A stretch of DNA of 64,000 nt from Patescibacteria group bacterium (lineage in GTDB: Bacteria > Patescibacteriota > Patescibacteriia > UBA2591 > CALHIP01): NCBI GenBank assembly GCA_026417895.1, contig JAOACJ010000016.1:20015-84014 (forward strand), given 5' to 3'. This document shows, one piece after another, positions 951-24,467 of this stretch. Below the pieces are notes generated by a model. It did no database searches and was not told where the DNA came from. It was given only the letters and a program-made list of their open reading frames with translations. The number at the start of each line of letters is the position of its first letter. Within the stretch, counting starts at the first letter, position 1. Position numbers and translations under genes: made by a program.

Positions 951-1499
951 CTATTCCGCCTCAAGACCAGGCAAACCTGCTCCCGCTTTAATATCTGCTT
1001 CAGTGCCTGGTCTAGGCGTTAATCTTGATTTTTCTCCAGCTATATCTTTAGCTGTTTTTTGTTGAGCAGCTGGTGGTTTCCAGCCACAAATAACTTCCAA
1101 ATCTTGACCTCCCTCATCATATTGTTTCTTAATTTCTTGAAAGGCGGATGGATCTTGCTCTTTCAATTGAGCAAGTTCAGGGCAAACTTCTTCGCCGCCG
1201 CCCGAAAGAATTATTAAGATAGCGACGCTGATTAAAATACCTAAGACAATCGGTCCCCAAATAGGAAAGGTTTTAATCAAAACTGCCCCGACAGCTTTAC
1301 CAACGACTAAAAAAACCTTTTTCGCCGCCGTGACAGCGGCTTTTTTCACTGCTTTTTTAGCTGGCTCAACAACAGCCTTTTTCAAGGCTTCTTTGGCTTT
1401 TTCTTCAGCTAACTCTCTTGCCAAATCTTTTTCCTCTTCTTGTTCTTCTTGTTGTTCTTCTCCGCTAGGCATAAAAATAATTGAAAAATTAAATCTCAA
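951..1499 (-). CDS. hypothetical single-pass membrane protein, Lys/Ala/Glu-rich; T4SS-cluster member
   Basis: 182-aa ORF in the operon. Acidic and then basic low-complexity N-terminal region, one hydrophobic helix (FPIWGPIVLGILISVAILIIL), C-terminal soluble tail. The true start is possibly the internal Met of MPSGEE. Confidence 0.4.
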   Translation of the reverse strand: MRFNFSIIFMPSGEEQQEEQEEEKDLARELAEEKAKEALKKAVVEPAKKAVKKAAVTAAKKVFLVVGKAVGAVLIKTFPIWGPIVLGILISVAILIILSGGGEEVCPELAQLKEQDPSAFQEIKKQYDEGGQDLEVICGWKPPAAQQKTAKDIAGEKSRLTPRPGTEADIKAGAGLPGLEAE

Positions 1500-1591: not shown

Positions 1592-2161
1592 CTACTGCCA
1601 AACAACTCTGTCGACTTTCCACTCTTCTCCTTCTTTAATTATTTTTAATTCTAGGGTCTGATAAAAGACCCTGGCTGGCTGGTTGTCTTTGACTTCTTCT
1701 CTCTGTGTCGAAATGAGATATTCGGCTTGATTTTCAGAAAAACTTTTTTCCTCAACATTTAAAACTTTTGTTGTAATTCCATAAAACTCTTTAATTGTTT
1801 CTCTCTCTTTCTGACGAATGTAATTTTCTGTTTCTTGCCAGAGACGCACTGACATTTCATTTTTTAAATCTTTTAAGTTTTGGAAATTGACATCGGTAGA
1901 AAAAGAACCATATCTTTCAACAAAATTCCGCGCCTTCAATTTTAGTTCATTTTTCAATAAAGTTAATTTTTCCTCTTCGGTTAATTCTCTGGACGGTGTA
2001 ATTTCTTGATTAAGTATTAATTCTTGATTCGTGACAGGAGGCGCTTGATTAAAAGCTGGTTGTTGAATGTTTGTCGCTGGACTTTGACGCTGACTCGAAA
2101 GAAAAAACAAGATTCCACCCAGAGCAATCAAGATAACGATAATGATAATAACTTTCTTCAT
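1592..2161 (-). CDS. hypothetical N-terminally anchored protein; possible VirB8-like bitopic component
   Basis: 189 aa. N-terminal TM (VIIIIVILIALGGILFFL) followed by a roughly 150-aa soluble domain. Its position immediately downstream of VirB4 matches the bitopic VirB8/TcpC-like architecture. No diagnostic motif was seen. Confidence 0.35.
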   Translation of the reverse strand: MKKVIIIIVILIALGGILFFLSSQRQSPATNIQQPAFNQAPPVTNQELILNQEITPSRELTEEEKLTLLKNELKLKARNFVERYGSFSTDVNFQNLKDLKNEMSVRLWQETENYIRQKERETIKEFYGITTKVLNVEEKSFSENQAEYLISTQREEVKDNQPARVFYQTLELKIIKEGEEWKVDRVVWQ

Positions 2162-2335: not shown

Positions 2336-4249
2336 TTAAGGCTCTGTCTCTAAACCTTCCGCATATTCTCTTTTTGCTTGCTCAATTTCTAAAAGTTGAC
2401 GTGGGTCAGAAGTAATAAGCTGGTCTTCAGTATAAGAAGCAACAACCTGCATAGCCGCATGTCTAGCCCCGGCAAAGAAAATTCCCTCACCCACTCCACA
2501 TTCTAAAAGTAAATATTTTTCTCCCTCTGTTAACATAAAAGTTTTTGCAACAATATCAATAGCCGCCGGTGTTTGTTTGAAAAGAATTCTTAAGGCTGAA
2601 TTGGTGACAATGGCTCGGCCGTAGTCAGAAACAAGAAAATCATTAACATCTTGCGTAATAGTCGTCACTCCTAGATAATATTTTCGACATCTTTTGACTA
2701 AAGAAAAGATAAAGCGGGCCGAATCTTCATGTTGCATTAACCACCAAGCCTCATCAATAACCAAAATCCTTTTTTTTAGTTCTGAGCGGACAACGTTCCA
2801 AATATAATTAACAATGGTATAAATAGCCATTGGCCTTAATTCGTCTTCCAAATCACGAACAGAGAAAACGACCAATTGATTATCAAGCTCAACATTGGTT
2901 TGATGATTCAAAAGGCCAGCAAAGGTGCCCTCGGTATATTTTTTTAATCGTTGTGCTAGATTTTCGCCACCAGCCATTCCTTCCAAAATCTCTTGAAGGT
3001 CAGAAAGGGTTGGCATTTCCACTTTATTTAAATCGCAGCCCGGAACAATATCTTTTTTGGCATAAGTCTCTAATAAAGCCCGGTCAAGTAAAGAATCTTC
3101 CTCAGGGGTGAAAATTTTTTGTCCCTTCTCTCCGGGTACGCCGATCATAATTTTCAATAAACCTTTTAAAACAACAACGGCCGAGCGAATAATATCAGCG
3201 ACTTTTAACTCTACACCTCTTTTTGGTCGAGGTAAATCAAAGGGATTAATTTTGCTCTCTGAAGCCAAGGAAACATCAATGTAGGTACCACCTACCGCTT
3301 CAGATAGATGTTTATATTCTCTTTCCGGATCAATAATAATAACATCAATACCCATCATCATTGAACGCAAAACCTCTAATTTAACACAATAACTTTTCCC
3401 TGCCCCTGAAGTGGCAAAAATGACTGAATTATAATTTTCTAAGGAAAAACGATCAAAAAGAATTAAACTATTATTATGACGATTAATGCCGTAAAGAATA
3501 CCACGATCAGAGGTAACATCAGCGGAAATAAAAGGAAAAGAAGAGGCACAGGGCGAAGAGTGCATATTAAAAGCAATCATTAACTCGTCATTACCTAATG
3601 GGAGGGTCGAGTTGAATCCTTGTTCGGCTTGGTAAAAAACTCTTTTACTATAAACCAGTTTTGAACCGAAAATGCCCTCGATTTTTTCCGTTAGTAAATC
3701 CAAGTCCTTTAAAGAATCGGCATAAAGAGTGACGTATAAAGCAAATTGAAAGAAATGTTCCACTCCTTGAGTTAAATCGTCTCGCAATTTCTCAATATCC
3801 CTTAGAGCTGTTTCTTTAATCGGATCGCGCGGTAAGCCTTTTTCTCTTTCCATTTCAATTTCAGCATAGAGAATGCCGACTCTTTTTTGTAATTGTTTTA
3901 AAATAATCGAGGCGTGTACCGGGTAAAAAAACATAGCAATATCCATCGGCGCGTTAAAATTGATAATTGGAGCAAACCAACCAATGGCAATATATCGGGG
4001 ATAGGCAGTGACAAAAAGGGTGCGAACATATTTGTTACCTAAAATCAAATGATCAGGGGTCACTTGCATAGCCGCCGGAGCGATTAAATCGCGAACAGAA
4101 ACTAGGCCCTCCTGTAAAGCCCTTTCCATTTCAATCATTTCCTTGTCCTTCATTTCTTCTTCCGTTTCTTTTCTTTTTTTCTCTTCCGGCGAAAGTCTTT
4201 CTTTTTTTAGTATTTCTGCTTTTTCAATTTTCGATGGCTCAAAGATCAT
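2336..4249 (-). CDS. virB4: VirB4/TrbE/TraC-family conjugal-transfer ATPase, central plus C-terminal ATPase part
   Basis: 637 aa. Walker A FATSGAGKSY, Walker B ILVIDEAWWLM, and the conserved N-proximal block NKYVRTLFVTAYPRYIAIGWF that is typical of VirB4 mid-region. Confidence 0.85.
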   Translation of the reverse strand: MIFEPSKIEKAEILKKERLSPEEKKRKETEEEMKDKEMIEMERALQEGLVSVRDLIAPAAMQVTPDHLILGNKYVRTLFVTAYPRYIAIGWFAPIINFNAPMDIAMFFYPVHASIILKQLQKRVGILYAEIEMEREKGLPRDPIKETALRDIEKLRDDLTQGVEHFFQFALYVTLYADSLKDLDLLTEKIEGIFGSKLVYSKRVFYQAEQGFNSTLPLGNDELMIAFNMHSSPCASSFPFISADVTSDRGILYGINRHNNSLILFDRFSLENYNSVIFATSGAGKSYCVKLEVLRSMMMGIDVIIIDPEREYKHLSEAVGGTYIDVSLASESKINPFDLPRPKRGVELKVADIIRSAVVVLKGLLKIMIGVPGEKGQKIFTPEEDSLLDRALLETYAKKDIVPGCDLNKVEMPTLSDLQEILEGMAGGENLAQRLKKYTEGTFAGLLNHQTNVELDNQLVVFSVRDLEDELRPMAIYTIVNYIWNVVRSELKKRILVIDEAWWLMQHEDSARFIFSLVKRCRKYYLGVTTITQDVNDFLVSDYGRAIVTNSALRILFKQTPAAIDIVAKTFMLTEGEKYLLLECGVGEGIFFAGARHAAMQVVASYTEDQLITSDPRQLLEIEQAKREYAEGLETEP

Positions 4250-4254
4250 AAATT

Positions 4255-4932
4255 TTATAGCTCAACTTTTAATTCTTCAATTTTACTCATTTTTTGATTA
4301 ATTGACTCGGTTGGATTATAGATATTATAAAACAATTCAATTAAACTTTGTGTGTCTAAAGGCACGGCATTAATACCCATGCTCGAAAGACCGGAAATAA
4401 CAAAATCAACCTTTTTAAAAAGCTCAGCTCGATATCTCTCAAATTTCTCTCTTTTCATTCTAATCAAAGAGGGCATTCTAAAAACATCCATCAAACGATC
4501 AGTAAATTTTCTTGATTTGTCGCCGGCCGGATTATAAGCAACGACGATAAAAAATTTCCTCGTCATAATGTCGCCCAACTGAACCAGCTCTTGGACATAA
4601 CTAATGTAATCTCTCATTTGGATTTTTAGTAATTCATTGGTTTGTTCCTTTTCTCTTTGTTTTAATTCTTCAAGATATGGTGCGATATTTAGTTTTCTTG
4701 ATTGAACAACAATTTGAATTGGCCAATCCAAAGAATTTAGAAAATTAACATAAGCAGAAATAACGGCTTTTTGCTCCTCTTCGGATTTAAGAGCAAAATT
4801 AACCGAGGAACAAAGTAAGACCGCTCTTAAAGTACCGTCTCGTAAAATAACGCAATCGTTTCTAATGCCAGAAATATCTAAATATTTCTGAGTTGAAACA
4901 GTGATTTTTTGTCTGGCTATTTTAGATCTCAT
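4255..4932 (-). CDS. VirB4 N-terminal-domain-like protein (separate ORF immediately upstream of the virB4 ATPase ORF)
   Basis: 225 aa. The pattern ITVSTQKYLDISGIRNDCVILRDGTLRAVLLCSSVNFALKSEEEQKAVISAYVNFLNSLDWPIQIVVQSRKLNI resembles the VirB4 N-terminal region (..tkdG.l.avl.v.g.d..l.s.ee......nfl..l...iqi..). Its stop TAA lies 5 nt before the ATG of the next ORF, in a different frame. Confidence 0.5.
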   Translation of the reverse strand: MRSKIARQKITVSTQKYLDISGIRNDCVILRDGTLRAVLLCSSVNFALKSEEEQKAVISAYVNFLNSLDWPIQIVVQSRKLNIAPYLEELKQREKEQTNELLKIQMRDYISYVQELVQLGDIMTRKFFIVVAYNPAGDKSRKFTDRLMDVFRMPSLIRMKREKFERYRAELFKKVDFVISGLSSMGINAVPLDTQSLIELFYNIYNPTESINQKMSKIEELKVEL

Positions 4933-5068: not shown

Positions 5069-5500
5069 TTACTCTTCCCTGGCTAAGCCACCGGTATCAA
5101 CTAAAATTGATAGATCAGAAAGCCGACCCCGCGGTAAAGTTTTCTTAATTTCTGGCGGCGCTTCTTCTTTTTCTTTTTTAAGAACGATTTCTTTTTCGGG
5201 AATGATCTCTTTTCTCCAAACCCGAACTTTTGGCCTTTGAAAAAATTGTATAAGATTTAATAAAAAATAGTGAAAGGGGCGACCATTAATTTTGACAAAA
5301 GTAAAAGAACCAAAAAATGGACAAATAACAAAAAGAAAAACAACGACAAAAATCCAAAAATCTAAGAGCTTAAAACAAAGAAAGGTTATACCTCCAGCAA
5401 AAATCAAAAGAATAAACTGACGTGGCGTGATCGGTCCAATAATTTTTGGCTCAATATCAATAAATTGTGGAACAACAAACTGCATATTCGCTTTGCTCAA
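5069..5500 (-). CDS. PrgI/VirB3-like small membrane protein
   Basis: 143 aa. The motif GPITPRQFILLIFAGGITFLCF followed by a second TM helix fits the PrgI-family two-helix proteins (gpLTlrQ motif) that precede VirB4 in Gram-positive T4SS. Confidence 0.5.
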   Translation of the reverse strand: MSKANMQFVVPQFIDIEPKIIGPITPRQFILLIFAGGITFLCFKLLDFWIFVVVFLFVICPFFGSFTFVKINGRPFHYFLLNLIQFFQRPKVRVWRKEIIPEKEIVLKKEKEEAPPEIKKTLPRGRLSDLSILVDTGGLAREE

Positions 5501-9361: not shown

Positions 9362-12300
9362 CTAGGTAACAAAGCGAGCTGCTTTTAATCTAGCCATATA
9401 TGCTTTCATGGCCTCAACTTGTTTTAAGACATCCTGAATAGTAGGCAAATAAGGGCTGATAAATTTATATGGTTGAGCCATCATTTGAGCGATTAAATTA
9501 TTAAAATCTTTTTGAAACTCTAAAGAAGCAGTAAGTTTAGAAATAACATCATCTCTCATTTCATTTGGACGTTCAAAAAATGACTTTTCGGCATTAACCA
9601 AGAAAGCAATATTCAAAGGATTAAGACCCCTCATATTGCCATACATATCTTCTGTAGCAAAAAGCCCAGGATGGGCCCGTTGATACATCATCCGCTGAGA
9701 CATATTTTTGACTTTACCTACTATCTCATTAATTGTTTCCTGGCTAAGAGTGATGTCGAAATTTCCTTTCTGATCAATGTACATTCTGAAAGGAGAAAAT
9801 TCTAATTTTCCTCTCACTGGATTAAGTCTTGAAATAGCATAACCCATATGAGGGGCTCCATGTTCTAAACTGATCATCCCAATCATATTAGCAATTTTCG
9901 CTGCCACACCCTCATCTTTAGCTGCCATTAAAGAGATATTTTTCACCATTTCTCGTATAAAAACAGGGTTCACCTCTCCTTTAGTTTTAGCTGTTCTGAT
10001 TAACTCTTCAATTTTTTCAGGCGTTATGGTGACTGGTTCAGTTTTCCCTGTTTTTTCATTAAAAACTTCGACTGTTTTCCCTAAATAATCTTGAGCCAAA
10101 AATTTCTTTAAATAAGGGGTAAATTTTTCTACCCAATCTCCTTTGAAAAGCTCATTTAAGTCATTGTTTTCCGCTAAAATCATAAGAGCAGCATTGGCTC
10201 GCGGCATATCGTTTCCTTTTAAAGCTGATTCAAGTTCATTTAAAGTAGCGTGGGTTTCTCCTAAAGTTTTGTTCTGTAATTCTTCTTTCTCTTCTAAAAC
10301 TCTTCTCATTATTTCATTACCTTTAAAATCGGTTTGGTCTTTTCCCCAAGAAACCCACAAATTCATCAAGTCATGCAATTTACCCAATCGATCTGCTTCT
10401 CTTTTTCTGGTTCGACGAGCATTAAAATTCTGGATATCTTTTAGAAGAGCATCAAGGTCAAAAATAGGAATGTCAGGTGTTGCTTCTAAAGTAGCCGCAA
10501 CATAACTTAATGGCAAGGTTATTTTTTCTGCTGCCCATTTGAATGCATCTTTACCAATCTGTTTTAAGACCTCTTCAGTTGTCATAGCTTTGGGTGGAAT
10601 CAATTCAATTTGAGTTAAAAGTTTTGTCTTAAGACTTGCCCCTTCTTGCTCACTGAGTTTATTTTCTTTCATTAATTGTTCAAGAATGCTTCCTATTTGT
10701 TCTTTGACCTTTCGTCTATCCGTTAAAGAAATCTGACCAACTTTTAAATGAGGATCGATAATATTTTCAATTTGTTCAAAACTCTGACTTATTGCAGTTA
10801 AATTTGGATCTGCCTGATGAGCTTTTTTGATCTGATCAAGTTCATATTTAACTCCACCTCTTACGCCCCCACTAAAACGCGCGAGTTCTGCTTTAGAAAG
10901 AGGAGTAAAAATGGGAATATGTTTGGATAGTAAAATTTCTATTTGTTCTTTTTCTTGATCGGTAAACGATTTCTTCTGAGGAAGTTTCTCGGCGCCCGGC
11001 AATCTTCGTTGCGACATTTTACCTAAAAACTGATCAATAAGATCTTGAACTTCTTTTTGCGGTGCCCCACCTGCCCTCATAATTTCTTCTATTCTCCTTT
11101 TTATACCACTCTGATTAAATGCCCCTAGTTGGGCGTTGATTTCTTTTTCACTTAATCCTTTTCTAGTAAGCATACTTCTCAAAGCGCCAACTATCTCATT
11201 TATTTTTTCGACTACTTGTTCATTTTTCAAACCTTCGATGGTTTTGATATCTTTATCTATATTATCCTTTAATTTTTCTTTTTGTGTCGTCTCTAAATTA
11301 CTGCTCTCAACAATCTTTTTTATCTGATTTTTTTCATCTGTCGTCCATCCGCCGTTTGTTCCTAATCTACTCTTTAAATTTTCTATCGATTGCCAGTCTT
11401 GCTCAGAAACCGCTCCTTTTAATAAATCCATTCCTTCGGTAACGGTCAAATCCTTTTCACCTTTCAGCTTAGCAAACTTAGCGGCCGTTTTTTTAACAAA
11501 AGCTGGAATTGGAGTTACCGACGCTTTCTCTGCCCATCCTTTCCATACATCAGCCACCCCTTTTCCTCCTTTTGTCAATAATGCTAAGGGGGTTTTAACA
11601 ATAGCAGCGGCTAAATCAGTTGTAACTGGTCTAAAGGCTCTCATCGTTCTATCTTTTAACCCTTCTAACCTCCTGGCTGTCCATTTTGCTGCTTTTGTCG
11701 CACTTTTCTGTAAAAAGCTAATTCCTTTACCGGCTAAACTGGCCCCGGCCACACCGAGCTGTTGGGCGGCAACAAGGGCACCAATTAGCATGCCAATACC
11801 TAAAGCAAAACTGGCTAAAACATTAGATTGTCCAGAAACAGTTGGGCCAACATTGACTTTTCCTGGCTGTAAACCCATTCCTGTCGTGGGGTTTAAATTG
11901 CCTTGTTGCACAGCATAAAAGGCAAACCACAAAAAGAAAGCGAGAACCGGACCGACAATGACCTGATTAAAAAATTTATCCTGCCATTGTTTAGCGTATT
12001 TTTGACCACCAGGAATAACAAAACAAATAAAAGCTAAAGGAGAAAGAACAATCATAATCCAGAGGGCTATGATTCTCATAATTAAAAGAGCTAGAATAAT
12101 AAAGGTGACAACGAGAGCAACAAACATCATAATACAAGCTAAAATCCATGCCCAAACTTTGTTCCAATCGTTAACTGTTACCGTAATCTCTTCACCTAAA
12201 TCACCGAAAGTTTTCAGACCAAGAATTTCAGATAGGTTTCCGGACGCTATATCTTTAAAAGCATTAACAAAAGAAAGCATGATCACCTGGGCAAAATCAA

Positions 12301-12703
12301 TAACCAAACCGCAAATCATTTTGGAAAAATTGACTAAAACGGCCATGAGCAAAACCGGAGCGAGAAGGGTTTTATAAGAATACTTTTCAATTTTCAAAAC
12401 CGTAGCAAAGGCAATAACTAAGAGCATCAAGATAAAAAACATATTGGCCAAATCACGAAGAATCTCCCAGCCTTTATTAACGGCACTTGTTCTAAGAAAA
12501 TTATTGTATTGGGCAATGCCGGTAATCCAATCAATAGTCCAGGTAACAAAAATACCCAAAAATCTAGCAATTGTCTCAAAAATTTTTGAAATGGCATCTT
12601 CAATAAAGCCAGCGAAGGTCGGTTGAACAATTAAAAAAATCCCTGTCAAAACAAAAATCAGACAGCCAAAAGTCAGCCAATTTTTTTTCTTTTTTAAATT
12701 CAT
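9362..12703 (-). CDS. VirB6/TrbL-like polytopic membrane protein with large C-terminal soluble, coiled-coil-rich domain
   Basis: 1113 aa. At least six hydrophobic helices in the first 330 aa or so, with Trp/Phe-rich loops as in TrbL/VirB6 pore proteins. A long Lys/Glu-rich helical C-terminal region follows. Located downstream of the giant protein and upstream of VirB4. Confidence 0.55.
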   Translation of the reverse strand: MNLKKKKNWLTFGCLIFVLTGIFLIVQPTFAGFIEDAISKIFETIARFLGIFVTWTIDWITGIAQYNNFLRTSAVNKGWEILRDLANMFFILMLLVIAFATVLKIEKYSYKTLLAPVLLMAVLVNFSKMICGLVIDFAQVIMLSFVNAFKDIASGNLSEILGLKTFGDLGEEITVTVNDWNKVWAWILACIMMFVALVVTFIILALLIMRIIALWIMIVLSPLAFICFVIPGGQKYAKQWQDKFFNQVIVGPVLAFFLWFAFYAVQQGNLNPTTGMGLQPGKVNVGPTVSGQSNVLASFALGIGMLIGALVAAQQLGVAGASLAGKGISFLQKSATKAAKWTARRLEGLKDRTMRAFRPVTTDLAAAIVKTPLALLTKGGKGVADVWKGWAEKASVTPIPAFVKKTAAKFAKLKGEKDLTVTEGMDLLKGAVSEQDWQSIENLKSRLGTNGGWTTDEKNQIKKIVESSNLETTQKEKLKDNIDKDIKTIEGLKNEQVVEKINEIVGALRSMLTRKGLSEKEINAQLGAFNQSGIKRRIEEIMRAGGAPQKEVQDLIDQFLGKMSQRRLPGAEKLPQKKSFTDQEKEQIEILLSKHIPIFTPLSKAELARFSGGVRGGVKYELDQIKKAHQADPNLTAISQSFEQIENIIDPHLKVGQISLTDRRKVKEQIGSILEQLMKENKLSEQEGASLKTKLLTQIELIPPKAMTTEEVLKQIGKDAFKWAAEKITLPLSYVAATLEATPDIPIFDLDALLKDIQNFNARRTRKREADRLGKLHDLMNLWVSWGKDQTDFKGNEIMRRVLEEKEELQNKTLGETHATLNELESALKGNDMPRANAALMILAENNDLNELFKGDWVEKFTPYLKKFLAQDYLGKTVEVFNEKTGKTEPVTITPEKIEELIRTAKTKGEVNPVFIREMVKNISLMAAKDEGVAAKIANMIGMISLEHGAPHMGYAISRLNPVRGKLEFSPFRMYIDQKGNFDITLSQETINEIVGKVKNMSQRMMYQRAHPGLFATEDMYGNMRGLNPLNIAFLVNAEKSFFERPNEMRDDVISKLTASLEFQKDFNNLIAQMMAQPYKFISPYLPTIQDVLKQVEAMKAYMARLKAARFVT

Positions 12704-12740: not shown

Positions 12741-15700
12741 TTATGGATTAAGAATAATCTGCCCGTCGTAGGGAACGCCGAAATTCGCTGGCGTAGACGT
12801 CCCTGGATTGCCGTCTGGATCAAGACAAGAGAAATCACCAGCATATGGTGTTGTTGGTGTTGAAGCTGAATGGGCACACCAACCCCAATTATCCTTAACA
12901 TAGACCTTAGGTTGATAGGAACAACCATTCGGATTAGTACAGAGATAGGTATGAACAAATTCCCAATATTGATTTAAACAAGCATCTGGATCATCACCAA
13001 AAGAAAGAGGTAATCCATCTGTACCTTTTTTGCAAACTGGTTTTCTGTTTTTAGTAATCATATTTGAAGAACCGCTTCGAAAACCATCGCCCCAGTCAAC
13101 GACAACTTCGCGTACCGGCATATAAGCTCCGTCTGCCCAGGCATAAAATCTTAAAGTGGCGGTATAAGTTTTACCGGAAATTAAGATGTTGCCACTCTCT
13201 TGATTACCAATAGTAATTTTGCCAACAGTTCCGCCGGCCGGGACGCCGGTACTAAAATTAACTGATTGGATTTGTGGCGACCTATCAGTAGGATGGAGGG
13301 AAGTATCGCTTCTTGAATCCCAATTATTCGCTATATTACCCGGAAGATAACTCAAGGTATTAACATCAAGATAAGACCAGGCATATGATTTAGGGAACAG
13401 TTTTTTTATGACAGCATCAGAGTCGTAAATCCCACCACTATAAAGATGACAAACTTCACCTTTGGAATCAATAATGTATTTTTTAGGCATTGTCCCTTGA
13501 AAACCGGTGGCGCCCCTCGGCAGACATTCATAACTGTAATCTAAAATGTCAGTCAGATTTCCATAAGGCACGTCTGTCCCTGGTTTCAGTTTGACTAAGT
13601 TGGTATTAACAACCGTTGGTAAATAAGGTTTATCATTAATTTTAACTAATTTGTTCGCCGCTTCTTTTAAAATAATTCTTATGCCGGTCAAGGCAGCAGC
13701 CCCATGACCAGCATCATCATCATTAAATTCAACTTTAAAACCTTTTAATTCCCCTTCTTTCTGATCAAAAATGGTTTGGACAAATAATCTTGCTTCACCA
13801 TTTCCTTTGCCGGTAACTTCTTTTTCATATTTCTTTTCTTTAGTCGCCGGATCTTCATAAGGAAGGATAATTGTCCCTTGGTAGTCTGCACCAAACTTAC
13901 AATCCCCAGGATTACTTTTATCTATCTTCCAATCAATTTCTATCCGATCAATCATATATTCATAAATTTTGCGATCTAAATAATAAAAATTATTTCCACT
14001 TTTGGCAAAATAAGAGGAGGAATAAAGATAAATAGCTTGAGATGGGCTACCTTTCCGTTGATCACCGCGGAAACAAGAAGCCATTTCTTTATCTGTTCCA
14101 TCACATGCCCATTGTCTGGTAACACTTCCGTCCCTTTTTAATTCCTCACTGGAAAAGCCTAAATAATCTTGACAACAACCCCGACTATTATTATTTGAAT
14201 CTTTTCTCCAACAAGACGCTCCTTCTGCCACATTAATCTCAGAGGCCGGTGCGAGATAAGCCTTAATTGGCAAATTAGCCCCACTTTTTAAGTGTAAATT
14301 AATTGTATAAATAATTGCCCCCCCCCACCCAGAGCCGTCTTCGTTAAATTCAAGATGAAAATTTCTTAAATAATTTTCCTGATCAAATTCAGCCTGAATA
14401 AAAAGACAGGATTTATTTTTATCCGGACATTCGTCGGCAAGACATGCCCCCCCCACTGGACAGGTTCCATTACTCTTGCAAACATAACCACTAGAATTTT
14501 GATGCGTAGCGTGTAAATAAGCTGCTCTTTTAAAATTATTTGGCCCAAGTTCTAAATCAAACGGTCCACAGCATTTATTACTACTACTGCAATCCACTGT
14601 GTTTAAATCCGAACAGGTAGTATTTTCCCAGCGAAACTTAGCCTTGACAATAATTTTTTGAATCTCTTCTCTTTTAATTTTTCTTTCTAAATAAGGAATG
14701 TACTTAGCTTGAAGAATGGTTCCTTCTCCGCCCTCCGCCAAAAAACAATAACCTAGATCTGTTTCTCCATAATTGGTGTACTCGGAACATTTATTACCAT
14801 AATCACCCCCTAAATATAAAGGTTGAATCAAACGATCAGCAAAACAGCCCCAATTTCCACCCAATCTTTGACCCGGAAAACTAGAAGTCAGATTAAAACC
14901 GAGAGGGAAAAAAGTTGGTGCAAAACCGGAAATCTCAGCCGGACGGGTATATCTTTCATAGCCATACCATCTTCGATCCGAAGATGGAAAATAACCAGCA
15001 CTGCGGACTTGGTTATAAGAATCTAAACCAGTTTCGACTTCACCGGGAAACCAGGTTAAACAAGCCTGTATTTCTTTTGGTTTTTCTAAATCCGGCTCTA
15101 AGCAATAGCCAGCTAAACCAATGTAATCAGTAATTTTTTTCATTGGCTCACATTTACCCTGATTATTTTTTCTTCCCTCATCAGTCCGTGTACAATCCTC
15201 ACGAAAAGCAACGGCCATCCCATTCGGACAAGGAGGTGAACAACATTTACCTAAATCTTGAGGATTTTCCGCCTGGGTACAAACTTTAATTGATTCAACG
15301 TCCGTTTCTAAATTAAAATAATAGGTTGGCTCGCCTAAAACTGATTCTGCTTTTCGGTACGAACAAAGACAATTATTTCCCCCTCTTTCGGTACATAAAT
15401 TTAGACCGCGATAAGTTCCTTCTACTTCGCGAGAAAAAGGAGAGGTATTTTCTGGATAAAGTTTGCAGGTTGGGGAGACAACACATTTACTCTGATAACA
15501 AACTTGTCCTTTTGGACAATCTTCATTCCGAGTACAAGTTCTATTACCAACGCCGTAATCAGTGGTTCCGCTCAGATAACTTAAAGCATAACCATTCGGA
15601 TAATTTTTGGGTCTTAACATCTCCACCGGATAAAAATTGTAAAGAGAATAGCCGGAATAATCCATACCCGTCCAACCGAAATCGCGATTTTTGTATTTTT

Positions 15701-18700
15701 GTTCAGTCAAAACTTCTGGTGTCTCTGTCGAAACTAAGGTACATTGAGCACCGCTACCTTCACCAGTTTGTTTTTGACATCTTAAGAAATAGTCACAAAT
15801 TTCTAAAAATCGTTGTTGATTCTCCTGCCAAACATATCTTTTTCCTGCACAATAAAGCCATTCACCGCAAACACGATCGCGACGGACTTTAAGAATTAAA
15901 TTAGTGTCATTAGTATTTTGGCCTAAAGCATAACAGTAACGGCAATAATCGGTATTGGCAAAATTAGAATTTGTACAATTATCATCAGAATTAACAGGAT
16001 TTCCTTGTCCATCTACTGGCCAAGGTTTTTTCGTACAATCAATTGGCGAAACAAGTCGGTGCTGATTAGCCTCACTTTTAGCATAAGTGGCAATAGAATT
16101 ATAAATGGCACTTGGATCATTTTGGGCTTTAAATAAAACACAGCCTTCTTTTAAAGAAACCTGGCCACGACAAGAAGCTTTATCTAATTGATTGTTGTCT
16201 AAATAGTAATAAGGATCTAAAGGTTTAAATTCAATATCATCAAAATAAACTTCGCCAAAAGCCTCACAACATCTCCAAGGACAATTGGGACAATTTTGGA
16301 TGGTGGTACAATCGCCAGCGTTTGTCTTAGAACAGCCACCATGCCAATAAGCCGGAGCTAGAAGGGGAATAATTTTAATTTCTTCAATGGCTAAATTTTT
16401 CGGATTTAAAGGACCTCCCGCCACGACTCTTAAAGACCTTTTTTGCCAACTAGTAATGGTCGTTGAAGCATCAATGCTAGCCCCGATTTCATAACCATGT
16501 TCATAATTCCAAGGCCAATGGTTTAGATTGTCACCCCAGGGGTTTCCGCCATTTTTAATCAAAAAAGCAATACATTCTTTAAGATTGCCACGGTTAAATT
16601 TACATTTGGGCTGACCGGAAATATTACATTGATTATTACTCCAATTTCCGCCAACCCAACTACAGCACGATTGAGAAGAACCACAATGATTTTTATATTC
16701 TTGCCAATCTTGACACTCTTCGGTTTGACAACCATTTAATTGAGTTACACCTCGCCAGCCTTCGTATTTTAAATTCACATGCCCAGATGGATAAGAAAGG
16801 TGAGAGGTAGAAACAACCTTGACTTTAAAATTCAAAACAAAACTTTTTTGATTTTTATGAGGTATTTCAACAATCTGAGAGGCGGCGTATATTTTTCGCG
16901 TGTCTGCACCCACAGTATGTGGCGTATCGTTAGCTATTTTAAGTGATTTACTGGCGCCGTCCCAACTCACAGTAGATGAATTGCCGCTGTAGCCGTAAGA
17001 CCAATTTGGGGCTGGCCCCTGACCACTACTTCCACTACCAATTTCAAAATCACCATTCTGGACATAATTAGTCACGCCGGCCGTTCTTAGTGGTTCAATA
17101 TATTCTGTACAACCAGCAAATCTTTCTTCACATTCACCAACCAAGCCTTGATAGCCGCTTTCCTCGGAAAATTTAATGCCATAAGTCACCCCATCCGGTA
17201 AATAATTCGTATAGCAAGGCTGATCAGTGCCTTTCTTAAACCAGCCGGTTCTGTATTCACTGCCAATCGGCACTTTTTCTCGCCAAACACAAATTTTTTC
17301 ACCAGGATCTTTGAAATAAACTTTGCCCGCCGCGGCTTGTTCAAACTCTTCACAGTTTTGCTGATGATAACGACAGAGAATTGGTCGACGGGTATATAAA
17401 TCAGGGTTATTTTTTAAATAAAAATCTGTCCAGGAAATTGGCTCACCTTGAGAAAGGTTGGGTAAACCAAATTTCTGACAACCTTTATCGCCAGCCGGAC
17501 AGGCTTTGGTCTGATCAACAACTAAATAGGTTAATTGATCAGCTGGGACTAAAACATTATCTTTTGGCTCGTCGGGATCAGTCAAGTTAAATGTTTCTGA
17601 AAATGGTGAGGTGGAGTTTTTTGTCTCAATTAAAGCTTCGCAGCCAATTTTGATTTCCGGACAGAGTTTAGAAAATGATCTAAAGAAATGAGATTGATTG
17701 GCTCGGTCTCTGTATTCAGCACAACCTAAATGATAGCCAGGCGCAGAAGCGCCAGTTAAATCCTGATCACAAACAGTTGGTGTTTGCCAAGAATTTTTAA
17801 TAGCAAAGATATTTTGTCGGACTTCTTTTAAGGTGATGTTGTCGAGATAGAAGGGAGAAGAAGATAATATTACTAATCTTTCATCATTAGCAACCTCTCG
17901 CTGGAAATAAACTGGTCCGACAGTGAATGAATACCACTCACCAGTAGTCAAAGCAGGCAGAGAAGGGAAGTCTATGTTATTGTCATTGCCTCTAAATCGT
18001 ATGGTAAGAGTGGTGGAATTATTACTGGCTCTTTTTACCCAGAAGGAAAGTAAATACGACCTTCCTTTTTGGACTAAATCCTGAACTGGCCTAGAGACAG
18101 AATTATTATTGTTGGCAACTCTCATTGACCGACCGCCAAAATAGATTGATTCCGAAGAAAGTTCACCGTCGATCCAGGGTTCAACGGTTAAACTTTCAAA
18201 ATCATCTTCAAAAAGAATTCTTAGATTATTAGCCGCATTGCCTTGATACTCACGACAACCAACATTTACCGAAGAACATCTTTCTCCTTCTGCTGGAATA
18301 GCCATATAGGTACAGATTCCATTATTAAATTCAACTCCGTTTAAAGCAAGACCACCTTGAGTGCTCGTCGGGCAATAACCGCTGATCACGGTTGTCGTCT
18401 TTCTTAGGGGCACACAAGTCTCGGAACAGGTAATAGTATTTTTATAGAGTTTATAAGAAACATGGCCATTAGCATCATAAAATTCTTTACAATGAGGATT
18501 GGTCCGAGCATCTTGAGAATTTTGACACCTGCCCCAAAGGGCTTGAGCATTGTTAGAAGACAACATTTCGTCTGGCTCAAAACCATTAGTTGTTGTCTTG
18601 GCTAAAAGATAATATCTTTTTAATTGATAACCTGTCGTCTCTGAACCAATCCAGGTATAGAAGTATTGACACTCAGCTCTTGGTTTTTGACAGGGTCTGA

Positions 18701-21700
18701 GATAAGAATAGTATTCTCTTCCTTCACCACCGCGATTGACGACATCTAAATTTGTAAATTCTTCACAACCAACTTCGGAGGCCGGACAGATTCGAACCGT
18801 CCGTGGAATAAAATAAGCATCTTCTTCACTATAAAAATGCGTTGGTTTTTGTTTAAAGACTTCATAGCCAACACACTCTCTTGGACAACGATCAGTATCT
18901 CTCGCCACGGCTGGCAGATAGGGCCCACCTAAAACTGGTGTATATTTTTCACAACCAACTTCATCTTGTTGACAAGCTAAAGCATAATCAGCACAGGCAT
19001 GATCATCGTCATTGGTAATTAAATTTCCATTGTTATCGCGGTTGTAACATTTCATCCAATCTGGCGCCTTTTTTAAATAAATTTTATTCGTGCTGGCATA
19101 AGATTTATAAGATGAGAGTGAGCCAACTTCTAATTGTAAATCATCAAGATAAATGCCTGTTCCATTAACAGCAATTTCTAAATCAATAATTTTTTTATTA
19201 TTTGGAGCGATAAAATCTGTTGAAACCCTTTGCCAAGGTGTATTTTTAGAAATAGGAATAATTTTTGTAACGCTATTGTTAATCTTGACTTGAATTTCTC
19301 GATCATTACTTTGATCTTTATTTTTCACCCAGAAAGAAAGGGTATATTTTGTCCCTGGTAAAAGAGAAATATCAACGTTGTCAGTGGAAGCCAACTCTAC
19401 TTTACCGCTACCAGTAAATTTAGCCGAAACTTTACCGGATTTAGCTTCGGCTTCATCAACAAGAAATTGACCACTGGTTATTTGCCAACCCTTCACTAAA
19501 ATAGTCGGGGTCGTAGTCGTACTTGTTTCAGAATAATCTTCAAAGCTCGAATTGGGTAATAAATTGGTGCCTAAATTTTCTTTGGTCCGGATAAATTCGG
19601 AACAACCCTCAGAAGTAGCCGGGCAGGTTTCAACAAATTTATTAAAGAAGATGGTGTTAAAGGGATCAGACACAGAACGGGGACTACCAACTGATCCGTT
19701 TGGCTGGATATTTAAAGATTGGTTCGGTTCAGTACAAATCCAACCACCTGCCCCTTCGGCAAAGTCTTTATTCCATCTCTGACAATACCACTGACAACCA
19801 ACCGAGTTCGCATCGCAGTCACCAAAATCTAAAGTATTTTTTAACCAGGCAAATCTTTGATTATCTTTAGTTCGGGTATAAAGTTGACAAGTATTATAAT
19901 AAGCCGGACATTGAGTGCCGGCCAAGCGCCAAATATTTTTTTCGCGGGTACAATAGCCGTAAGTATGACAGGTGCCATCTTCATTTTCGCCAACACAATC
20001 CTTCATCTCTATACAAGTCTCTTGGCGTTCATTAGAAGCAGGCAAGGGAATAGCCGAATAAGCCATTAAATTACATTGCATTGAGGGTAATTTCAAAACC
20101 CAATTCGGATCAACTAAATGACAGAAAGGTGAAGCCGAAACAAGACATTGTCCATCTTTTTTACAACAGTTAGCACTTGAGTCCCAACTACCTATACTTC
20201 CTTCACATTTTTTTTCTGTCGTATTTGACTTCGGGTCCCCTTGGACATAAATTGTACAATCGCCATCAGAACTAACTTTGTCAAAACCTTCAACAATTTG
20301 AGCCAAAGTAAACTTGGCATCGCCAAAATCACCCCGGCTAATTTTCTCAGCAGCAATTTCTAAGCCTAAAGGAATAACTCGTGCCCGACGAAGTTTTTTT
20401 AGGTTGGTTAAAGAATAACGAGAGGAAAAATCACGCGCCCCATCAGTCAGACCATAACTACCGACATACCAGTTACCATGTAAATAATTTTTCTCAATTG
20501 CTTCTTTAATAGTTAAATTTTCTTCAATAGCCCGGGCAAAACCGCCGTCAATGACGCAATTATAAGGCAAAGCATATTTTGTTTCCGTTGGACAAGCTGC
20601 AAATTCCTCTAAAAGATTTATCTCACCAGATGGTTTTTTAAAGCTTACAGTTTTTAAATCAGCATAAATGGCCTCAATTTTTTCTTGGGTAGGAGAAGCC
20701 GGAATCCCACCCTCCCAACTTGTTCGACCACTTGGACTAGCTTCAGGATTAAGACCTTCTTTTTGAAATAACCTTTCAAGAAATTTAGAAAAAAATGTCT
20801 GAATAAATGTATTTGCCACATCAGCAACCAAAACACCAGTGTAAACTTTAAGTGACGCTTTCCCTTCAGCAATCATCTGTCGAGCTCTTTCTTCGGTTAA
20901 ACCAGCTGGTAAAAGCGCTTTACCAGAAATTTTAGAGGTAACTGACTGAAATTGGCCCTGAAGAGATTGGAAAAATTTATCCGCACCAACTTTTTCAGCC
21001 GCCTTACTTAAAATACCTGATTTGAGACTCATGGCCACGCCAAGATCACTTCCTTCCGGCGTGAAGGTTTTTTGAATATCTTCTAAAATGTTCAAGTCTG
21101 GTGAGGGAGTTCCTTTTTCCACTGCTTCTCTTGCCTCATCAACCATTTTTTCTAAAGTGGTTGCCCATTCAGAGAGTTGAGAGGCATAATTTTGTGCCCT
21201 TTTAATTGCTTCAAAACAATAGCTATAATTATTTTGACATTGAGTAGCATTATTAATACCTGGACAAGCACCGTTATAGCAATTAGGGTTTTGACAAAAT
21301 TCTTCTTGTGATTTATTAAGACAACGAACCGGTGCCTCAATTGGTCTGTATCCATCACTGGTCCATTTTCTTCCCAACCACCAGTTGAGACTTGTCTGAA
21401 AAGTTGGTGGTCCTTGAGTAATGGCTTTCAACCTTTCTTTTATAGTGGAGAGACTATTAAGTACACCGGAAATATTCGGCGGACCTATCTTTTTTGATTC
21501 TTGTAGATACTTATCCCACTCAGTTAAAAAGAGCTGCTGATGTCCAGAAAGTTGATCCGCAATATTGATTAAATTACTTTTGTTAACATCGTAAAGTTTC
21601 GTATCAATCCTAATCGCATTTTTAATCTTAACCTGAACTTGGGGCGGCTGACCTGGAACATATTCGACATTCACATAACCTTTCAATCCTTCTTTATACT

Positions 21701-22256
21701 GAGCAATGAGTTTTTCTTTCGCCTCTCTTATCCTTTCTTTCATCTTCGAAATAGGGCAACGTGCCTCATATTCAAAAGGAATTTTTGGCGGCTTTACAAA
21801 TAAGAGAATATTCAGTTTTATTGTCGGATCAATCGGATCACAAAGGCTTTGGAGACCAAAACCTTTAGTCGCCACTTCATCTAAAAGATCACCGACAACA
21901 GAATCAGCCATTTTGTTCCAGTATTCTTTGTCGGTAAAAAACATTGGTTTGCCAGCTTTACCGCCAGTGGCCAGCCAAGTAGCTGATTCGGTGACAAATT
22001 TTTGGGCAAAACCTTCAAGAAAGCTTTTATAAAGAATGGCTATTACCTGATATTTTACCTTGTCATAAATCCTAATAGCTTGACTTTTTATCCATTCTAA
22101 AACCCGGGGAATATCACCGACGGTTGTGGAAGCTCCTTGAGCATATGCTGGTTTCGGCCAAAATAAAAGAGGAGTAAGTAGGGAGAAAATCATTACTCCG
22201 AGTAAAAAACTGATGATAATTTTTCGAAGATGTTTTTTCATTTTCCCTTTTTTCAA
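12741..22256 (-). CDS. giant secreted cysteine-rich surface protein with three CBM_4_9-like carbohydrate-binding modules
   Basis: 3171-aa uninterrupted ORF. N-terminal signal peptide (…LLTPLLFWPKPAYAQG), very many Cys in CxxC / CC / C-x-n-C arrangements, no TM after the signal. Three modules carry the CBM_4_9 signature (N..FE…W…G..Y.LSFWVK…YLDD): around LLPGTKYTLSFWVKNKDQ…IYLDDLQLEV, QKGRSYLLSFWVKRASNN…FYLDNITLKEV and NGDFEIGSG…VYFDDIEFKP. Confidence 0.8.
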   Translation of the reverse strand: MKKGKMKKHLRKIIISFLLGVMIFSLLTPLLFWPKPAYAQGASTTVGDIPRVLEWIKSQAIRIYDKVKYQVIAILYKSFLEGFAQKFVTESATWLATGGKAGKPMFFTDKEYWNKMADSVVGDLLDEVATKGFGLQSLCDPIDPTIKLNILLFVKPPKIPFEYEARCPISKMKERIREAKEKLIAQYKEGLKGYVNVEYVPGQPPQVQVKIKNAIRIDTKLYDVNKSNLINIADQLSGHQQLFLTEWDKYLQESKKIGPPNISGVLNSLSTIKERLKAITQGPPTFQTSLNWWLGRKWTSDGYRPIEAPVRCLNKSQEEFCQNPNCYNGACPGINNATQCQNNYSYCFEAIKRAQNYASQLSEWATTLEKMVDEAREAVEKGTPSPDLNILEDIQKTFTPEGSDLGVAMSLKSGILSKAAEKVGADKFFQSLQGQFQSVTSKISGKALLPAGLTEERARQMIAEGKASLKVYTGVLVADVANTFIQTFFSKFLERLFQKEGLNPEASPSGRTSWEGGIPASPTQEKIEAIYADLKTVSFKKPSGEINLLEEFAACPTETKYALPYNCVIDGGFARAIEENLTIKEAIEKNYLHGNWYVGSYGLTDGARDFSSRYSLTNLKKLRRARVIPLGLEIAAEKISRGDFGDAKFTLAQIVEGFDKVSSDGDCTIYVQGDPKSNTTEKKCEGSIGSWDSSANCCKKDGQCLVSASPFCHLVDPNWVLKLPSMQCNLMAYSAIPLPASNERQETCIEMKDCVGENEDGTCHTYGYCTREKNIWRLAGTQCPAYYNTCQLYTRTKDNQRFAWLKNTLDFGDCDANSVGCQWYCQRWNKDFAEGAGGWICTEPNQSLNIQPNGSVGSPRSVSDPFNTIFFNKFVETCPATSEGCSEFIRTKENLGTNLLPNSSFEDYSETSTTTTPTILVKGWQITSGQFLVDEAEAKSGKVSAKFTGSGKVELASTDNVDISLLPGTKYTLSFWVKNKDQSNDREIQVKINNSVTKIIPISKNTPWQRVSTDFIAPNNKKIIDLEIAVNGTGIYLDDLQLEVGSLSSYKSYASTNKIYLKKAPDWMKCYNRDNNGNLITNDDDHACADYALACQQDEVGCEKYTPVLGGPYLPAVARDTDRCPRECVGYEVFKQKPTHFYSEEDAYFIPRTVRICPASEVGCEEFTNLDVVNRGGEGREYYSYLRPCQKPRAECQYFYTWIGSETTGYQLKRYYLLAKTTTNGFEPDEMLSSNNAQALWGRCQNSQDARTNPHCKEFYDANGHVSYKLYKNTITCSETCVPLRKTTTVISGYCPTSTQGGLALNGVEFNNGICTYMAIPAEGERCSSVNVGCREYQGNAANNLRILFEDDFESLTVEPWIDGELSSESIYFGGRSMRVANNNNSVSRPVQDLVQKGRSYLLSFWVKRASNNSTTLTIRFRGNDNNIDFPSLPALTTGEWYSFTVGPVYFQREVANDERLVILSSSPFYLDNITLKEVRQNIFAIKNSWQTPTVCDQDLTGASAPGYHLGCAEYRDRANQSHFFRSFSKLCPEIKIGCEALIETKNSTSPFSETFNLTDPDEPKDNVLVPADQLTYLVVDQTKACPAGDKGCQKFGLPNLSQGEPISWTDFYLKNNPDLYTRRPILCRYHQQNCEEFEQAAAGKVYFKDPGEKICVWREKVPIGSEYRTGWFKKGTDQPCYTNYLPDGVTYGIKFSEESGYQGLVGECEERFAGCTEYIEPLRTAGVTNYVQNGDFEIGSGSSGQGPAPNWSYGYSGNSSTVSWDGASKSLKIANDTPHTVGADTRKIYAASQIVEIPHKNQKSFVLNFKVKVVSTSHLSYPSGHVNLKYEGWRGVTQLNGCQTEECQDWQEYKNHCGSSQSCCSWVGGNWSNNQCNISGQPKCKFNRGNLKECIAFLIKNGGNPWGDNLNHWPWNYEHGYEIGASIDASTTITSWQKRSLRVVAGGPLNPKNLAIEEIKIIPLLAPAYWHGGCSKTNAGDCTTIQNCPNCPWRCCEAFGEVYFDDIEFKPLDPYYYLDNNQLDKASCRGQVSLKEGCVLFKAQNDPSAIYNSIATYAKSEANQHRLVSPIDCTKKPWPVDGQGNPVNSDDNCTNSNFANTDYCRYCYALGQNTNDTNLILKVRRDRVCGEWLYCAGKRYVWQENQQRFLEICDYFLRCQKQTGEGSGAQCTLVSTETPEVLTEQKYKNRDFGWTGMDYSGYSLYNFYPVEMLRPKNYPNGYALSYLSGTTDYGVGNRTCTRNEDCPKGQVCYQSKCVVSPTCKLYPENTSPFSREVEGTYRGLNLCTERGGNNCLCSYRKAESVLGEPTYYFNLETDVESIKVCTQAENPQDLGKCCSPPCPNGMAVAFREDCTRTDEGRKNNQGKCEPMKKITDYIGLAGYCLEPDLEKPKEIQACLTWFPGEVETGLDSYNQVRSAGYFPSSDRRWYGYERYTRPAEISGFAPTFFPLGFNLTSSFPGQRLGGNWGCFADRLIQPLYLGGDYGNKCSEYTNYGETDLGYCFLAEGGEGTILQAKYIPYLERKIKREEIQKIIVKAKFRWENTTCSDLNTVDCSSSNKCCGPFDLELGPNNFKRAAYLHATHQNSSGYVCKSNGTCPVGGACLADECPDKNKSCLFIQAEFDQENYLRNFHLEFNEDGSGWGGAIIYTINLHLKSGANLPIKAYLAPASEINVAEGASCWRKDSNNNSRGCCQDYLGFSSEELKRDGSVTRQWACDGTDKEMASCFRGDQRKGSPSQAIYLYSSSYFAKSGNNFYYLDRKIYEYMIDRIEIDWKIDKSNPGDCKFGADYQGTIILPYEDPATKEKKYEKEVTGKGNGEARLFVQTIFDQKEGELKGFKVEFNDDDAGHGAAALTGIRIILKEAANKLVKINDKPYLPTVVNTNLVKLKPGTDVPYGNLTDILDYSYECLPRGATGFQGTMPKKYIIDSKGEVCHLYSGGIYDSDAVIKKLFPKSYAWSYLDVNTLSYLPGNIANNWDSRSDTSLHPTDRSPQIQSVNFSTGVPAGGTVGKITIGNQESGNILISGKTYTATLRFYAWADGAYMPVREVVVDWGDGFRSGSSNMITKNRKPVCKKGTDGLPLSFGDDPDACLNQYWEFVHTYLCTNPNGCSYQPKVYVKDNWGWCAHSASTPTTPYAGDFSCLDPDGNPGTSTPANFGVPYDGQIILNP

Positions 22257-23906: not shown

Positions 23907-24467
23907 TTATTTTTTATTATTAATTTGAACCTCTTCAATTAAGAGAAGACGGGTGTAGGGTTTAAGAAAATATTTTTTAATTAAATTTTCCGTTTTGGCT
24001 AAAACGTCATAAGGAGAGACCCAAATACTTTTTTGGAGCATTTGGAAGCCTAACCCCTGGAGTCCGGCACGGAGGAAATTTCTTTTTATTCTAATTTTTT
24101 CTGGAATATCAAAAATAATCATCAACCACTTACCATCTTTTCTCTTTTTAACTTCTTTCAAATTTTCTTTTACTTCTAAAATTTTTCTTTTCCCCTCTTC
24201 GCTCAGAAGCCAGCCTCTTGTTTTGTCTTTTTGAAAGCTTTTAATTAGACCTTTCTTTTTTAAATAATAAATTAAATTACGAAAAGCTCGTCGGCCAGTT
24301 TTTTTCTGGTAGATTTGTCGAAGTCTTTTATATTCAGGATAAAGAACGTCTTGCCAACTTCTCGGTGGCCAATTTAAAAAATCACCAAATTTCTCATAAA
24401 TTTTATATAAATCCCAAAGAAATTTTTCTGTCCAAGAAACCCTTTTTGAGATAATAAATTTTGACAT
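23907..24467 (-). CDS. winged-helix DNA-binding protein (PaaX-like N-terminus) with a C-terminal Cas2/VapD-like motif pattern
   Basis: 186 aa. N-terminal AFRNLIYYLKKKGLIKSFQKDKTRGWLLSEEG resembles a wHTH recognition helix plus wing. C-terminal WLMIIFDIPEKIRIKRNFLRAGLQGLGFQMLQKSIWVSPYD matches the beta1 (hhhhYD[IV]) - alpha1 (R..L...L...G.R.Q.SV) arrangement of Cas2-fold proteins. Confidence 0.5.
   Translation of the reverse strand: MSKFIISKRVSWTEKFLWDLYKIYEKFGDFLNWPPRSWQDVLYPEYKRLRQIYQKKTGRRAFRNLIYYLKKKGLIKSFQKDKTRGWLLSEEGKRKILEVKENLKEVKKRKDGKWLMIIFDIPEKIRIKRNFLRAGLQGLGFQMLQKSIWVSPYDVLAKTENLIKKYFLKPYTRLLLIEEVQINNKK

Follow-up and report, generated by a model that had tools for sequence, protein, structure and literature searches.

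A two-gene VirB4, composed of a TrsD-like protein and a separate ATPase, in a predicted type IV secretion locus of a Patescibacteria group bacterium

Results and Discussion

A two-gene VirB4 in the chromosome of a Patescibacteria group bacterium

We analysed a 64,000-nt stretch of DNA of a Patescibacteria group bacterium (GenBank assembly GCA_026417895.1, contig JAOACJ010000016.1, positions 20,015 to 84,014 of the forward strand), referred to below as the window. It carries a predicted type IV secretion system (T4SS) locus, in which the sequence of VirB4 is distributed over two adjacent open reading frames (ORFs): ORF-N, encoding a protein of 225 aa, and ORF-C, encoding an ATPase of 637 aa. 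This is very probably a genuine and ancient two-gene VirB4 of a chromosomal, monoderm-type (MPF_FATA-like) T4SS of Patescibacteria. The locus is chromosomal and is placed amid the housekeeping genes ahcY, ksgA and leuS. A VirB4 composed of a TrsD-like protein and an ATPase has already been published and is typical of Patescibacteria; the present data are an incremental refinement of published knowledge and do not describe a new phenomenon. The features of the locus, in the order of transcription and with positions of the window, are:

5500..5069, minus strand: gene of a small membrane protein of the PrgI family (VirB3-like), 143 aa, Pfam PF12666 PrgI; first gene of the conserved core
4932..4255, minus strand: ORF-N, 225 aa, TrsD-like or 'TraC-like'; stand-alone protein homologous to the initial part of the N-terminal domain of VirB4
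4257-4255, minus strand: TAA stop codon of ORF-N
4254-4250, minus strand: intergenic spacer of 5 nt (AATTT) between the TAA of ORF-N and the ATG of ORF-C
4249..2336, minus strand: ORF-C, 637 aa, VirB4-type T4SS ATPase; ATG at 4249-4247
1592..2161, minus strand: conserved gene downstream of the ATPase gene, 189 aa; N-terminal hydrophobic segment, no Pfam match

The translation of ORF-N starts with MRSKIARQ and contains, in this order, RDGTLRAVLL, SEEEQ, YVNFLNSL and IQIVVQSR; that of ORF-C starts with MIFEPS and carries YVRTLFVTAYP further in. The minus strand reads GAGCTATAAAATTTATGATC across the junction. The ORF-C ATG begins 8 nt after the first base of the ORF-N stop codon, which puts the two ORFs in different frames. 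The sizes of the ORFs, the TAA, the 5-nt spacer, the differing frames, all of the quoted motifs and the junction sequence GAGCTATAAAATTTATGATC had been given in a preliminary description of this DNA, and are confirmed here. That description had considered a genuine split (possibly with translational coupling), a frameshift and an assembly error, and had called a genuinely split VirB4 unusual.

Conservation of the two-gene arrangement

One genome per GTDB species was scanned and 595 relatives were confirmed; the best 80 loci, all from metagenome-assembled genomes (MAGs) of Patescibacteria, were kept. One of these was too short to judge, and the gene-pair counts rest on the other 79. In 79 of 79 species loci with enough downstream DNA, the small gene stops and the ATPase follows as an ORF of its own, which in nearly all related loci starts with its own ATG. 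Intergenic distances lie between -29 and +502 nt, with a median of 12: the genes overlap in five loci, and the gap exceeds 60 nt in 23 of the 80, often with further in-frame stops. The relative frames 0, 1 and 2 occur 26, 31 and 23 times, respectively, the window counted in. The comparison with orthologs proposed in the preliminary description thus yields two genes throughout, and not unsplit orthologs.

The same state is seen in protein databases. ORF-N has 3,668 database homologues, the top 120 of which are all stand-alone proteins of 215-230 aa; the top 120 homologues of ORF-C are likewise all stand-alone (612-671 aa). A query spanning the junction, built from the C-terminal 165 residues of ORF-N and the N-terminal 261 residues of ORF-C, retrieved no fused close relative among its top 120 matches. 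The proteins of the window are 59-91% identical to hundreds of proteins of Patescibacteria.

The closest locus from an independent assembly (L086; 88% identity; Joint Genome Institute) contains ahcY followed by genes encoding PrgI, a TraC-like protein of 225 aa, an ATPase of 649 aa and proteins of 198 and 168 aa. Its spacer is 1 nt long vs 5 nt in the window; owing to this 4-nt indel the two ORFs stand in another relative frame, and neither is disrupted. The ratio of nonsynonymous to synonymous substitution rates (dN/dS) between the window and the 88%-identical relative is 0.064 for ORF-N and 0.040 for ORF-C, values that are approximate because dS is near saturation. Such values indicate strong purifying selection on both genes, whose products are predicted to be two separate polypeptides with independent start codons.

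The pair is part of a conserved operon core, which comprises genes encoding (i) the PrgI/VirB3-like protein, (ii) the TrsD-like protein of 225 aa, (iii) the VirB4 ATPase of 637 aa and (iv) the 189-aa protein. A PrgI homologue is located upstream of the pair in 76 of the 80 related loci; the PrgI-family protein of the window scores 35.8 bits with Pfam PF12666 (cutoff 27). Of the 80 loci, 66 contain a homologue of the 189-aa protein, and the protein of the window is 61% identical to the 198-aa protein found at the same position in L086. From its synteny, to which the evidence for its role is confined, the 189-aa protein is a probable further component of the T4SS.

The size and topology of the 189-aa protein (1592-2161) would fit a putative VirB8-like (NTF2-fold) T4SS component. 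Further downstream on the minus strand there is an ORF encoding 182 aa (951..1499) and, directly downstream of it, an ORF of at least 316 codons (positions 1-948) that extends beyond the left end of the window and had no homologue in the 80 related loci.

Many of the species-representative MAGs that carry the locus (L002, L012, L013, L018, L019, etc.), which come from binchicken co-assemblies, are titled 'uncultured Gammaproteobacteria bacterium'. Since the locus is typically patescibacterial, these organism names are presumably mislabelled.

Identity of the ATPase encoded by ORF-C

ORF-C matches the NCBIfam profile NF045971 conju_CD1110 with 344.1 bits (cutoff 325) at positions 172-729 of 752, and the Pfam profiles P-loop_TraG (91.9 bits, cutoff 25.8) and AAA_10 (51.1 bits, cutoff 27.5); DUF87 is also matched. 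A Walker A motif (ATSGAGKSY, approximately residues 279-287, with GAGKS at approximately 282-286) and a Walker B motif (ILVIDEAWW, approximately residues 495-503, with VIDEAWW at approximately 497-503) are present, and both are invariant across 24 ORF-C homologues. Residues 246-613 match PDB entry 4AG5, the crystal structure of Thermoanaerobacter VirB4's C-terminal domain, with an E value of 1e-40. The assignment of ORF-C to the VirB4-type T4SS ATPases is far beyond chance.

Three parts can be distinguished in the protein: a K/E-rich N-terminus at residues ~1-45, a stretch corresponding to the distal part of the N-terminal domain of VirB4 at ~50-245 and a RecA-like catalytic domain at ~246-613. 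An AlphaFold2 model of ORF-C (pLDDT 54, pTM 0.34) was too poor for a fold search.

One relative of the N-terminal region of the ATPase (P0307, 467 aa) has a precomputed match to an intein-splicing domain (PF14890); some VirB4 genes of Patescibacteria may host inteins.

Identity of the 225-aa protein encoded by ORF-N

Apart from the TrsD/TraD family (positions 16-143 of 201), ORF-N matches only VirB4-family profiles, and these solely at N-terminal positions: 104-285 of 894 in VirB4_plasma, 21-120 of 752 in CD1110 and 16-180 of 375 in Pfam TraC_F_IV. The Pfam family PF26593 'TraC-like' is assigned, in precomputed annotation, to two database proteins, P0001 (100% identical to ORF-N) and P0002. 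A search of the PDB sequences with the ORF-N profile (A1) gave no match, even at E <=1, and fold comparison was therefore used, in which TrwK/VirB4 was the single best structural match. The homology to VirB4 is visible through family profiles and not through the single sequence of pCF10 PrgJ. Together, the profile matches show that ORF-N is homologous to the initial part of the N-terminal domain of VirB4, an assignment that is likewise far beyond chance. By homology or fold it is related to VirB4's N-terminal part, and it has the position of a ~200-230-aa protein encoded between the genes of a VirB3-like protein and a VirB4 ATPase (as in the window and pSK41; adjacency to the ATPase gene in 79 of 79 loci).

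A profile search of 1.84 billion cluster representatives yielded 3,580 TrsD-like representatives at E <=1e-3 and 528 at E <=1e-30. Among the best 150 there are 95 proteins of up to 260 aa, 54 of 261-450 aa and a single one of 898 aa (P0454, see below). Two of the 54 larger representatives were inspected (P0328 and P0348), and both have long low-complexity C-terminal tails rich in Pro, Ala, Gln and Thr.

Position of the cut within VirB4

ORF-N and ORF-C occupy successive and essentially non-overlapping positions on profiles of one-piece VirB4 proteins; in VirB4_plasma, ORF-C covers positions 258-892 vs 104-285 for ORF-N. The ORF-C profile (A2), residues 52-595, aligns to residues 224-773 of PrgJ, a one-piece VirB4 of 796 aa. 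The ORF-C polypeptide does not include a complete N-terminal domain: its match starts at position 172 of 752 in CD1110 and at residue 224 of PrgJ. These alignments show the two proteins as complementary, not redundant, pieces of VirB4. By the same comparison, ORF-C lacks exactly the segment homologous to ORF-N and retains the second part of the N-terminal domain together with the catalytic domain.

In TrwK, the N-terminal domain comprises residues 15-400 (PMC9259494). The catalytic domain of ORF-C starts at approximately residue 246, and therefore ~245 residues of the classical N-terminal domain stay with the ATPase. The cut is accordingly located inside this domain; the junction, when checked against the structural domains of VirB4, does not fall between them. 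The label 'N-domain', given earlier to the 225-aa ORF, is imprecise: the ORF covers just the first part of the domain, the ~245 further residues being in the ATPase ORF.

We also considered ORF-N as a paralogue of the N-terminal part of ORF-C, i.e. the product of an internal duplication. This was rejected, as the two profiles (A1 vs A2) have no detectable similarity (hhalign E value of 0.46).

Relatives and precedents

The arrangement has a counterpart in the staphylococcal plasmid pSK41, in which trsC (VirB3-like, 135 aa) and trsD (227 aa) are followed, after a 14-nt gap, by trsE, encoding a 672-aa ATPase of the DUF87/VirB4 type; this order of genes matches that of the window. Profile A1 aligns to pSK41 TrsD with an hhalign probability of 89.6% (E value of 1.9e-6, 177 columns, ORF-N residues 12-206 with TrsD residues 32-216), and ORF-N is thus a remote homologue of the prototype TrsD over essentially its full length. 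ORF-C and TrsE are related with a BLASTP E value of 5e-42 and are colinear from residue 26 of ORF-C and residue 7 of TrsE. Both halves are homologous to and colinear with TrsD and TrsE, and the fission point is therefore common to the window and pSK41. The identity between the window proteins and the staphylococcal TrsD and TrsE is just ~23-24%. The pSK41/pGO1 system (MPF_FATA, pGO1 subclass, where TrsD and TrsE correspond to TraD and TraE) belongs to a conjugative plasmid that also encodes a relaxase and a coupling protein, whereas the locus of the window is chromosomal.

A tblastn search of plasmids with ORF-N returned 92 records. Plasmids pGspE55-1 of Geobacillus and pJFP838A of C. perfringens encode, in this order, PrgI, an N-like 'hypothetical protein' (312-318 aa) and a DUF87 ATPase (636-641 aa). 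In a plasmid of Halobellus, an N-like protein of 549 aa is encoded directly upstream of a DUF87 ATPase, and this gene pair extends the split arrangement to Archaea. In this haloarchaeal protein (Halobellus sp. DFY28 plasmid, locus L082, 4275-5921), the TrsD-like module forms the N-terminal part, and a DUF7139 domain is located at residues 330-458.

The one-piece VirB4 proteins (TrwK of R388, the PrgJ of pCF10/CD1110 family and TraC of F) share with the pair of the window the catalytic domain, the Walker motifs and, when both products are added up, the N-terminal content; in their systems too, VirB3/PrgI is encoded immediately upstream. They differ in having the N-terminal and catalytic domains in one polypeptide, whereas in the window the first ~170-220 residues are a separate product.

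A further precedent is the chromosomal T4SS of Patescibacteria, with a VirB4 of a clade specific to Patescibacteria and related to MPF_FATA, PrgI/VirB3 and a TrsD homologue adjoining virB4 (PMC12102498); the layout of the window is exactly alike, and there is no substantive difference between the two. Among the T4SS components of Patescibacteria, TrsD is the most abundant according to Quinonero-Coronel et al. 2025 (PMC12102498), who report it as remotely homologous to the N-terminal portion of VirB4 and as usually encoded beside virB4; 1,664 of its 2,272 homologues are associated with virB4, and the homologue of Ca. Southlakia epibionticum is listed as essential (PMC12102498). A review from 2025 treats the T4SS of Patescibacteria as recognised, essential and of monoderm type (PMC12857230). 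The expectation that a genuinely split VirB4 would be unusual is therefore not borne out: the split is the rule in this lineage (79 of 79 loci and the top 120 homologues of each half), is common to trsD/trsE of pSK41/pGO1 and has been published (PMC12102498).

A natural fusion

In the exhaustive profile search, one fused form, P0454 (898 aa), was found among the best 150 cluster representatives. Its N module (residues 8-223) is joined through ~90 aa of Pro/Ala-rich linker to an ATPase that shares 51% identity with that of the window. Five contigs, which derive from at least three sequencing runs, encode the identical protein immediately downstream of PrgI. P0454 is probably a real, secondary re-fusion, and it suggests a functional link between the N module and the ATPase, whose order is unchanged. 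Its loci include:

L087, 3001-5697: gene of P0454
L088 and L089, 1431-4127: gene of P0454

Origin and role of the split

There is a negligible probability that a single VirB4 of ~860 aa has been interrupted, either by an indel from sequencing or assembly or by a frameshift that recently turned the gene into a pseudogene. Such an event would account for adjacent ORFs in differing frames and only 5 nt apart, and in most T4SS classes VirB4 is normally a one-piece protein of 750-900 aa (PrgJ, 796 aa; TrwK, 823 aa). Yet a stop and restart, with variable spacing and frame, is found in all 79 of the other species genomes, which come from many independent assemblies; the closest homologues of both halves are all stand-alone; ORF-C has an ATG of its own and an N-terminus colinear with pSK41 TrsE; and both ORFs are under strong purifying selection (dN/dS of 0.064 and 0.040). 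On these comparative sequence data the indel or pseudogene is already refuted. Since the genes are separate in all compared genomes, an assembly error confined to this contig is excluded, as is the frameshift envisaged in the preliminary description, given the variable gaps (-29 to +502 nt), the mixture of frames (26/31/23) and the purifying selection. Programmed recoding, by ribosomal frameshifting or stop bypass, could instead give a fused full-length VirB4: the short A/T-rich junction TAAAATTTATG could in principle permit slippage, and P0454 indicates at least one lineage in which a fusion is functional. This is highly improbable, however, given that frame relation (26/31/23) and spacing both vary (five overlaps, 23 gaps of >60 nt), that the spacer differs by a 4-nt indel between the window and its 88%-identical relative, that no conserved slippery motif is visible at the junction and that nearly all ATPase genes have their own ATG. 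The variable gap and frame thus exclude a conserved frameshift or read-through. The genuine split, which the preliminary description had offered as one option, is strongly supported by the 79 separate loci, the stand-alone homologues, the dN/dS values and the assembly of L086.

Another explanation accepts two genes and assigns them different roles: ORF-N would descend from the VirB4 N-terminus, but would now be an independent accessory factor (a chaperone, substrate adaptor or regulator) and not a structural piece of the motor. The long disordered Pro/Ala/Gln-rich tails of many members of the family (54 of 150 representatives have 261-450 aa) could be interaction platforms. Against this, the ATPase ORF is without precisely the segment present in ORF-N, and a complete VirB4 N-terminal domain therefore arises only if the two proteins associate. 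Moreover, the order VirB3, N module, ATPase is nearly universal, the natural fusion keeps the N module in front of the ATPase, and TrwK/VirB4 is the single best structural match of ORF-N. We consider an accessory factor quite unlikely.

Several points weigh against a genuine two-gene VirB4 whose halves act together. ORF-N scores only 36.1 bits with the NCBIfam profile NF041427 TrsD/TraD, far below the cutoff of 200, and its kinship to the staphylococcal TrsD is therefore remote; the alignment of A1 to the single PrgJ sequence is not significant (hhalign E value of 0.26), the short aligned segment being PrgJ residues 66-95, which is the expected region. The TrsD homologue of Gracilibacteria is not encoded next to virB4 (PMC12102498), and 23 of 80 loci have more than 60 nt between the genes; tight coupling is therefore not obligatory. 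Finally, that the ORF-N product associates with the ATPase and has a docking role is inferred.

In the two-gene VirB4 proposed here, the ORF-N product would bind the ATPase non-covalently and thereby rebuild the complete VirB4 N-terminal domain. In the R388 structure, VirB4 protomers dimerise through this domain, and VirB3, the membrane anchor of the motor, wraps around it (PMC9259494). Because of these properties of the R388 domain, it is likely, by analogy, that ORF-N would be the module of the motor that docks to VirB3 and the membrane. Translation of the ATPase may be coupled to termination of ORF-N across the 5-nt gap, a local and not a conserved detail: the coupling suggested earlier is plausible at the spacing seen here, but the gaps of >60 nt in 23 of 80 loci indicate no conserved requirement for it.

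It is conceivable, though we think it unlikely, that the fission of the N-terminal domain is functionally exploited, with the TrsD-like protein as a dissociable subunit that controls the timing or stoichiometry of the docking of the ATPase hexamer on VirB3 and the membrane channel. It would then be an assembly switch or adaptor of a host-dependent, non-conjugative T4SS essential for the epibiotic lifestyle of Patescibacteria. Reports describe the T4SS of Patescibacteria as essential for growth as epibionts (PMC12102498; PMC12857230).

The additions made here to the published picture are modest: (i) the complementarity of the two products, (ii) the location of the cut inside the N-terminal domain, (iii) the structural match to TrwK, (iv) the occurrence of the pair on plasmids of Firmicutes and haloarchaea and (v) the fused form. 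The N-terminal domain is cut at the same place in Patescibacteria, staphylococcal plasmids, megaplasmids of Firmicutes and haloarchaeal plasmids, and this shared cut offers a natural handle on which half binds VirB3 and the membrane and which supports oligomerisation. In annotation, such loci should not be flagged as containing a frameshifted or pseudogenised VirB4, and the small gene would be better named a TrsD-like VirB4 N-terminal module than 'hypothetical' or 'TraC'.

Other genes of the window

Near the T4SS locus there is a region with a giant ORF:

12741-22256 and 9362-12703, minus strand: giant ORF and its neighbourhood

The giant ORF (12741-22256, minus strand) encodes 3,171 aa, in which only a carbohydrate-binding domain, CBM_4_9, is recognisable (residues 898-1030). 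It is adjoined by an ORF encoding 1,113 aa and ORFs encoding 480 and 307 aa, which have no Pfam matches. The products of the giant ORF and its neighbours may be surface or adhesion proteins.

Between leuS and ksgA, the window encodes a 186-aa protein (23907-24467, minus strand) with a PaaX central Cas2-like domain (PF20803, E value of 3e-20).

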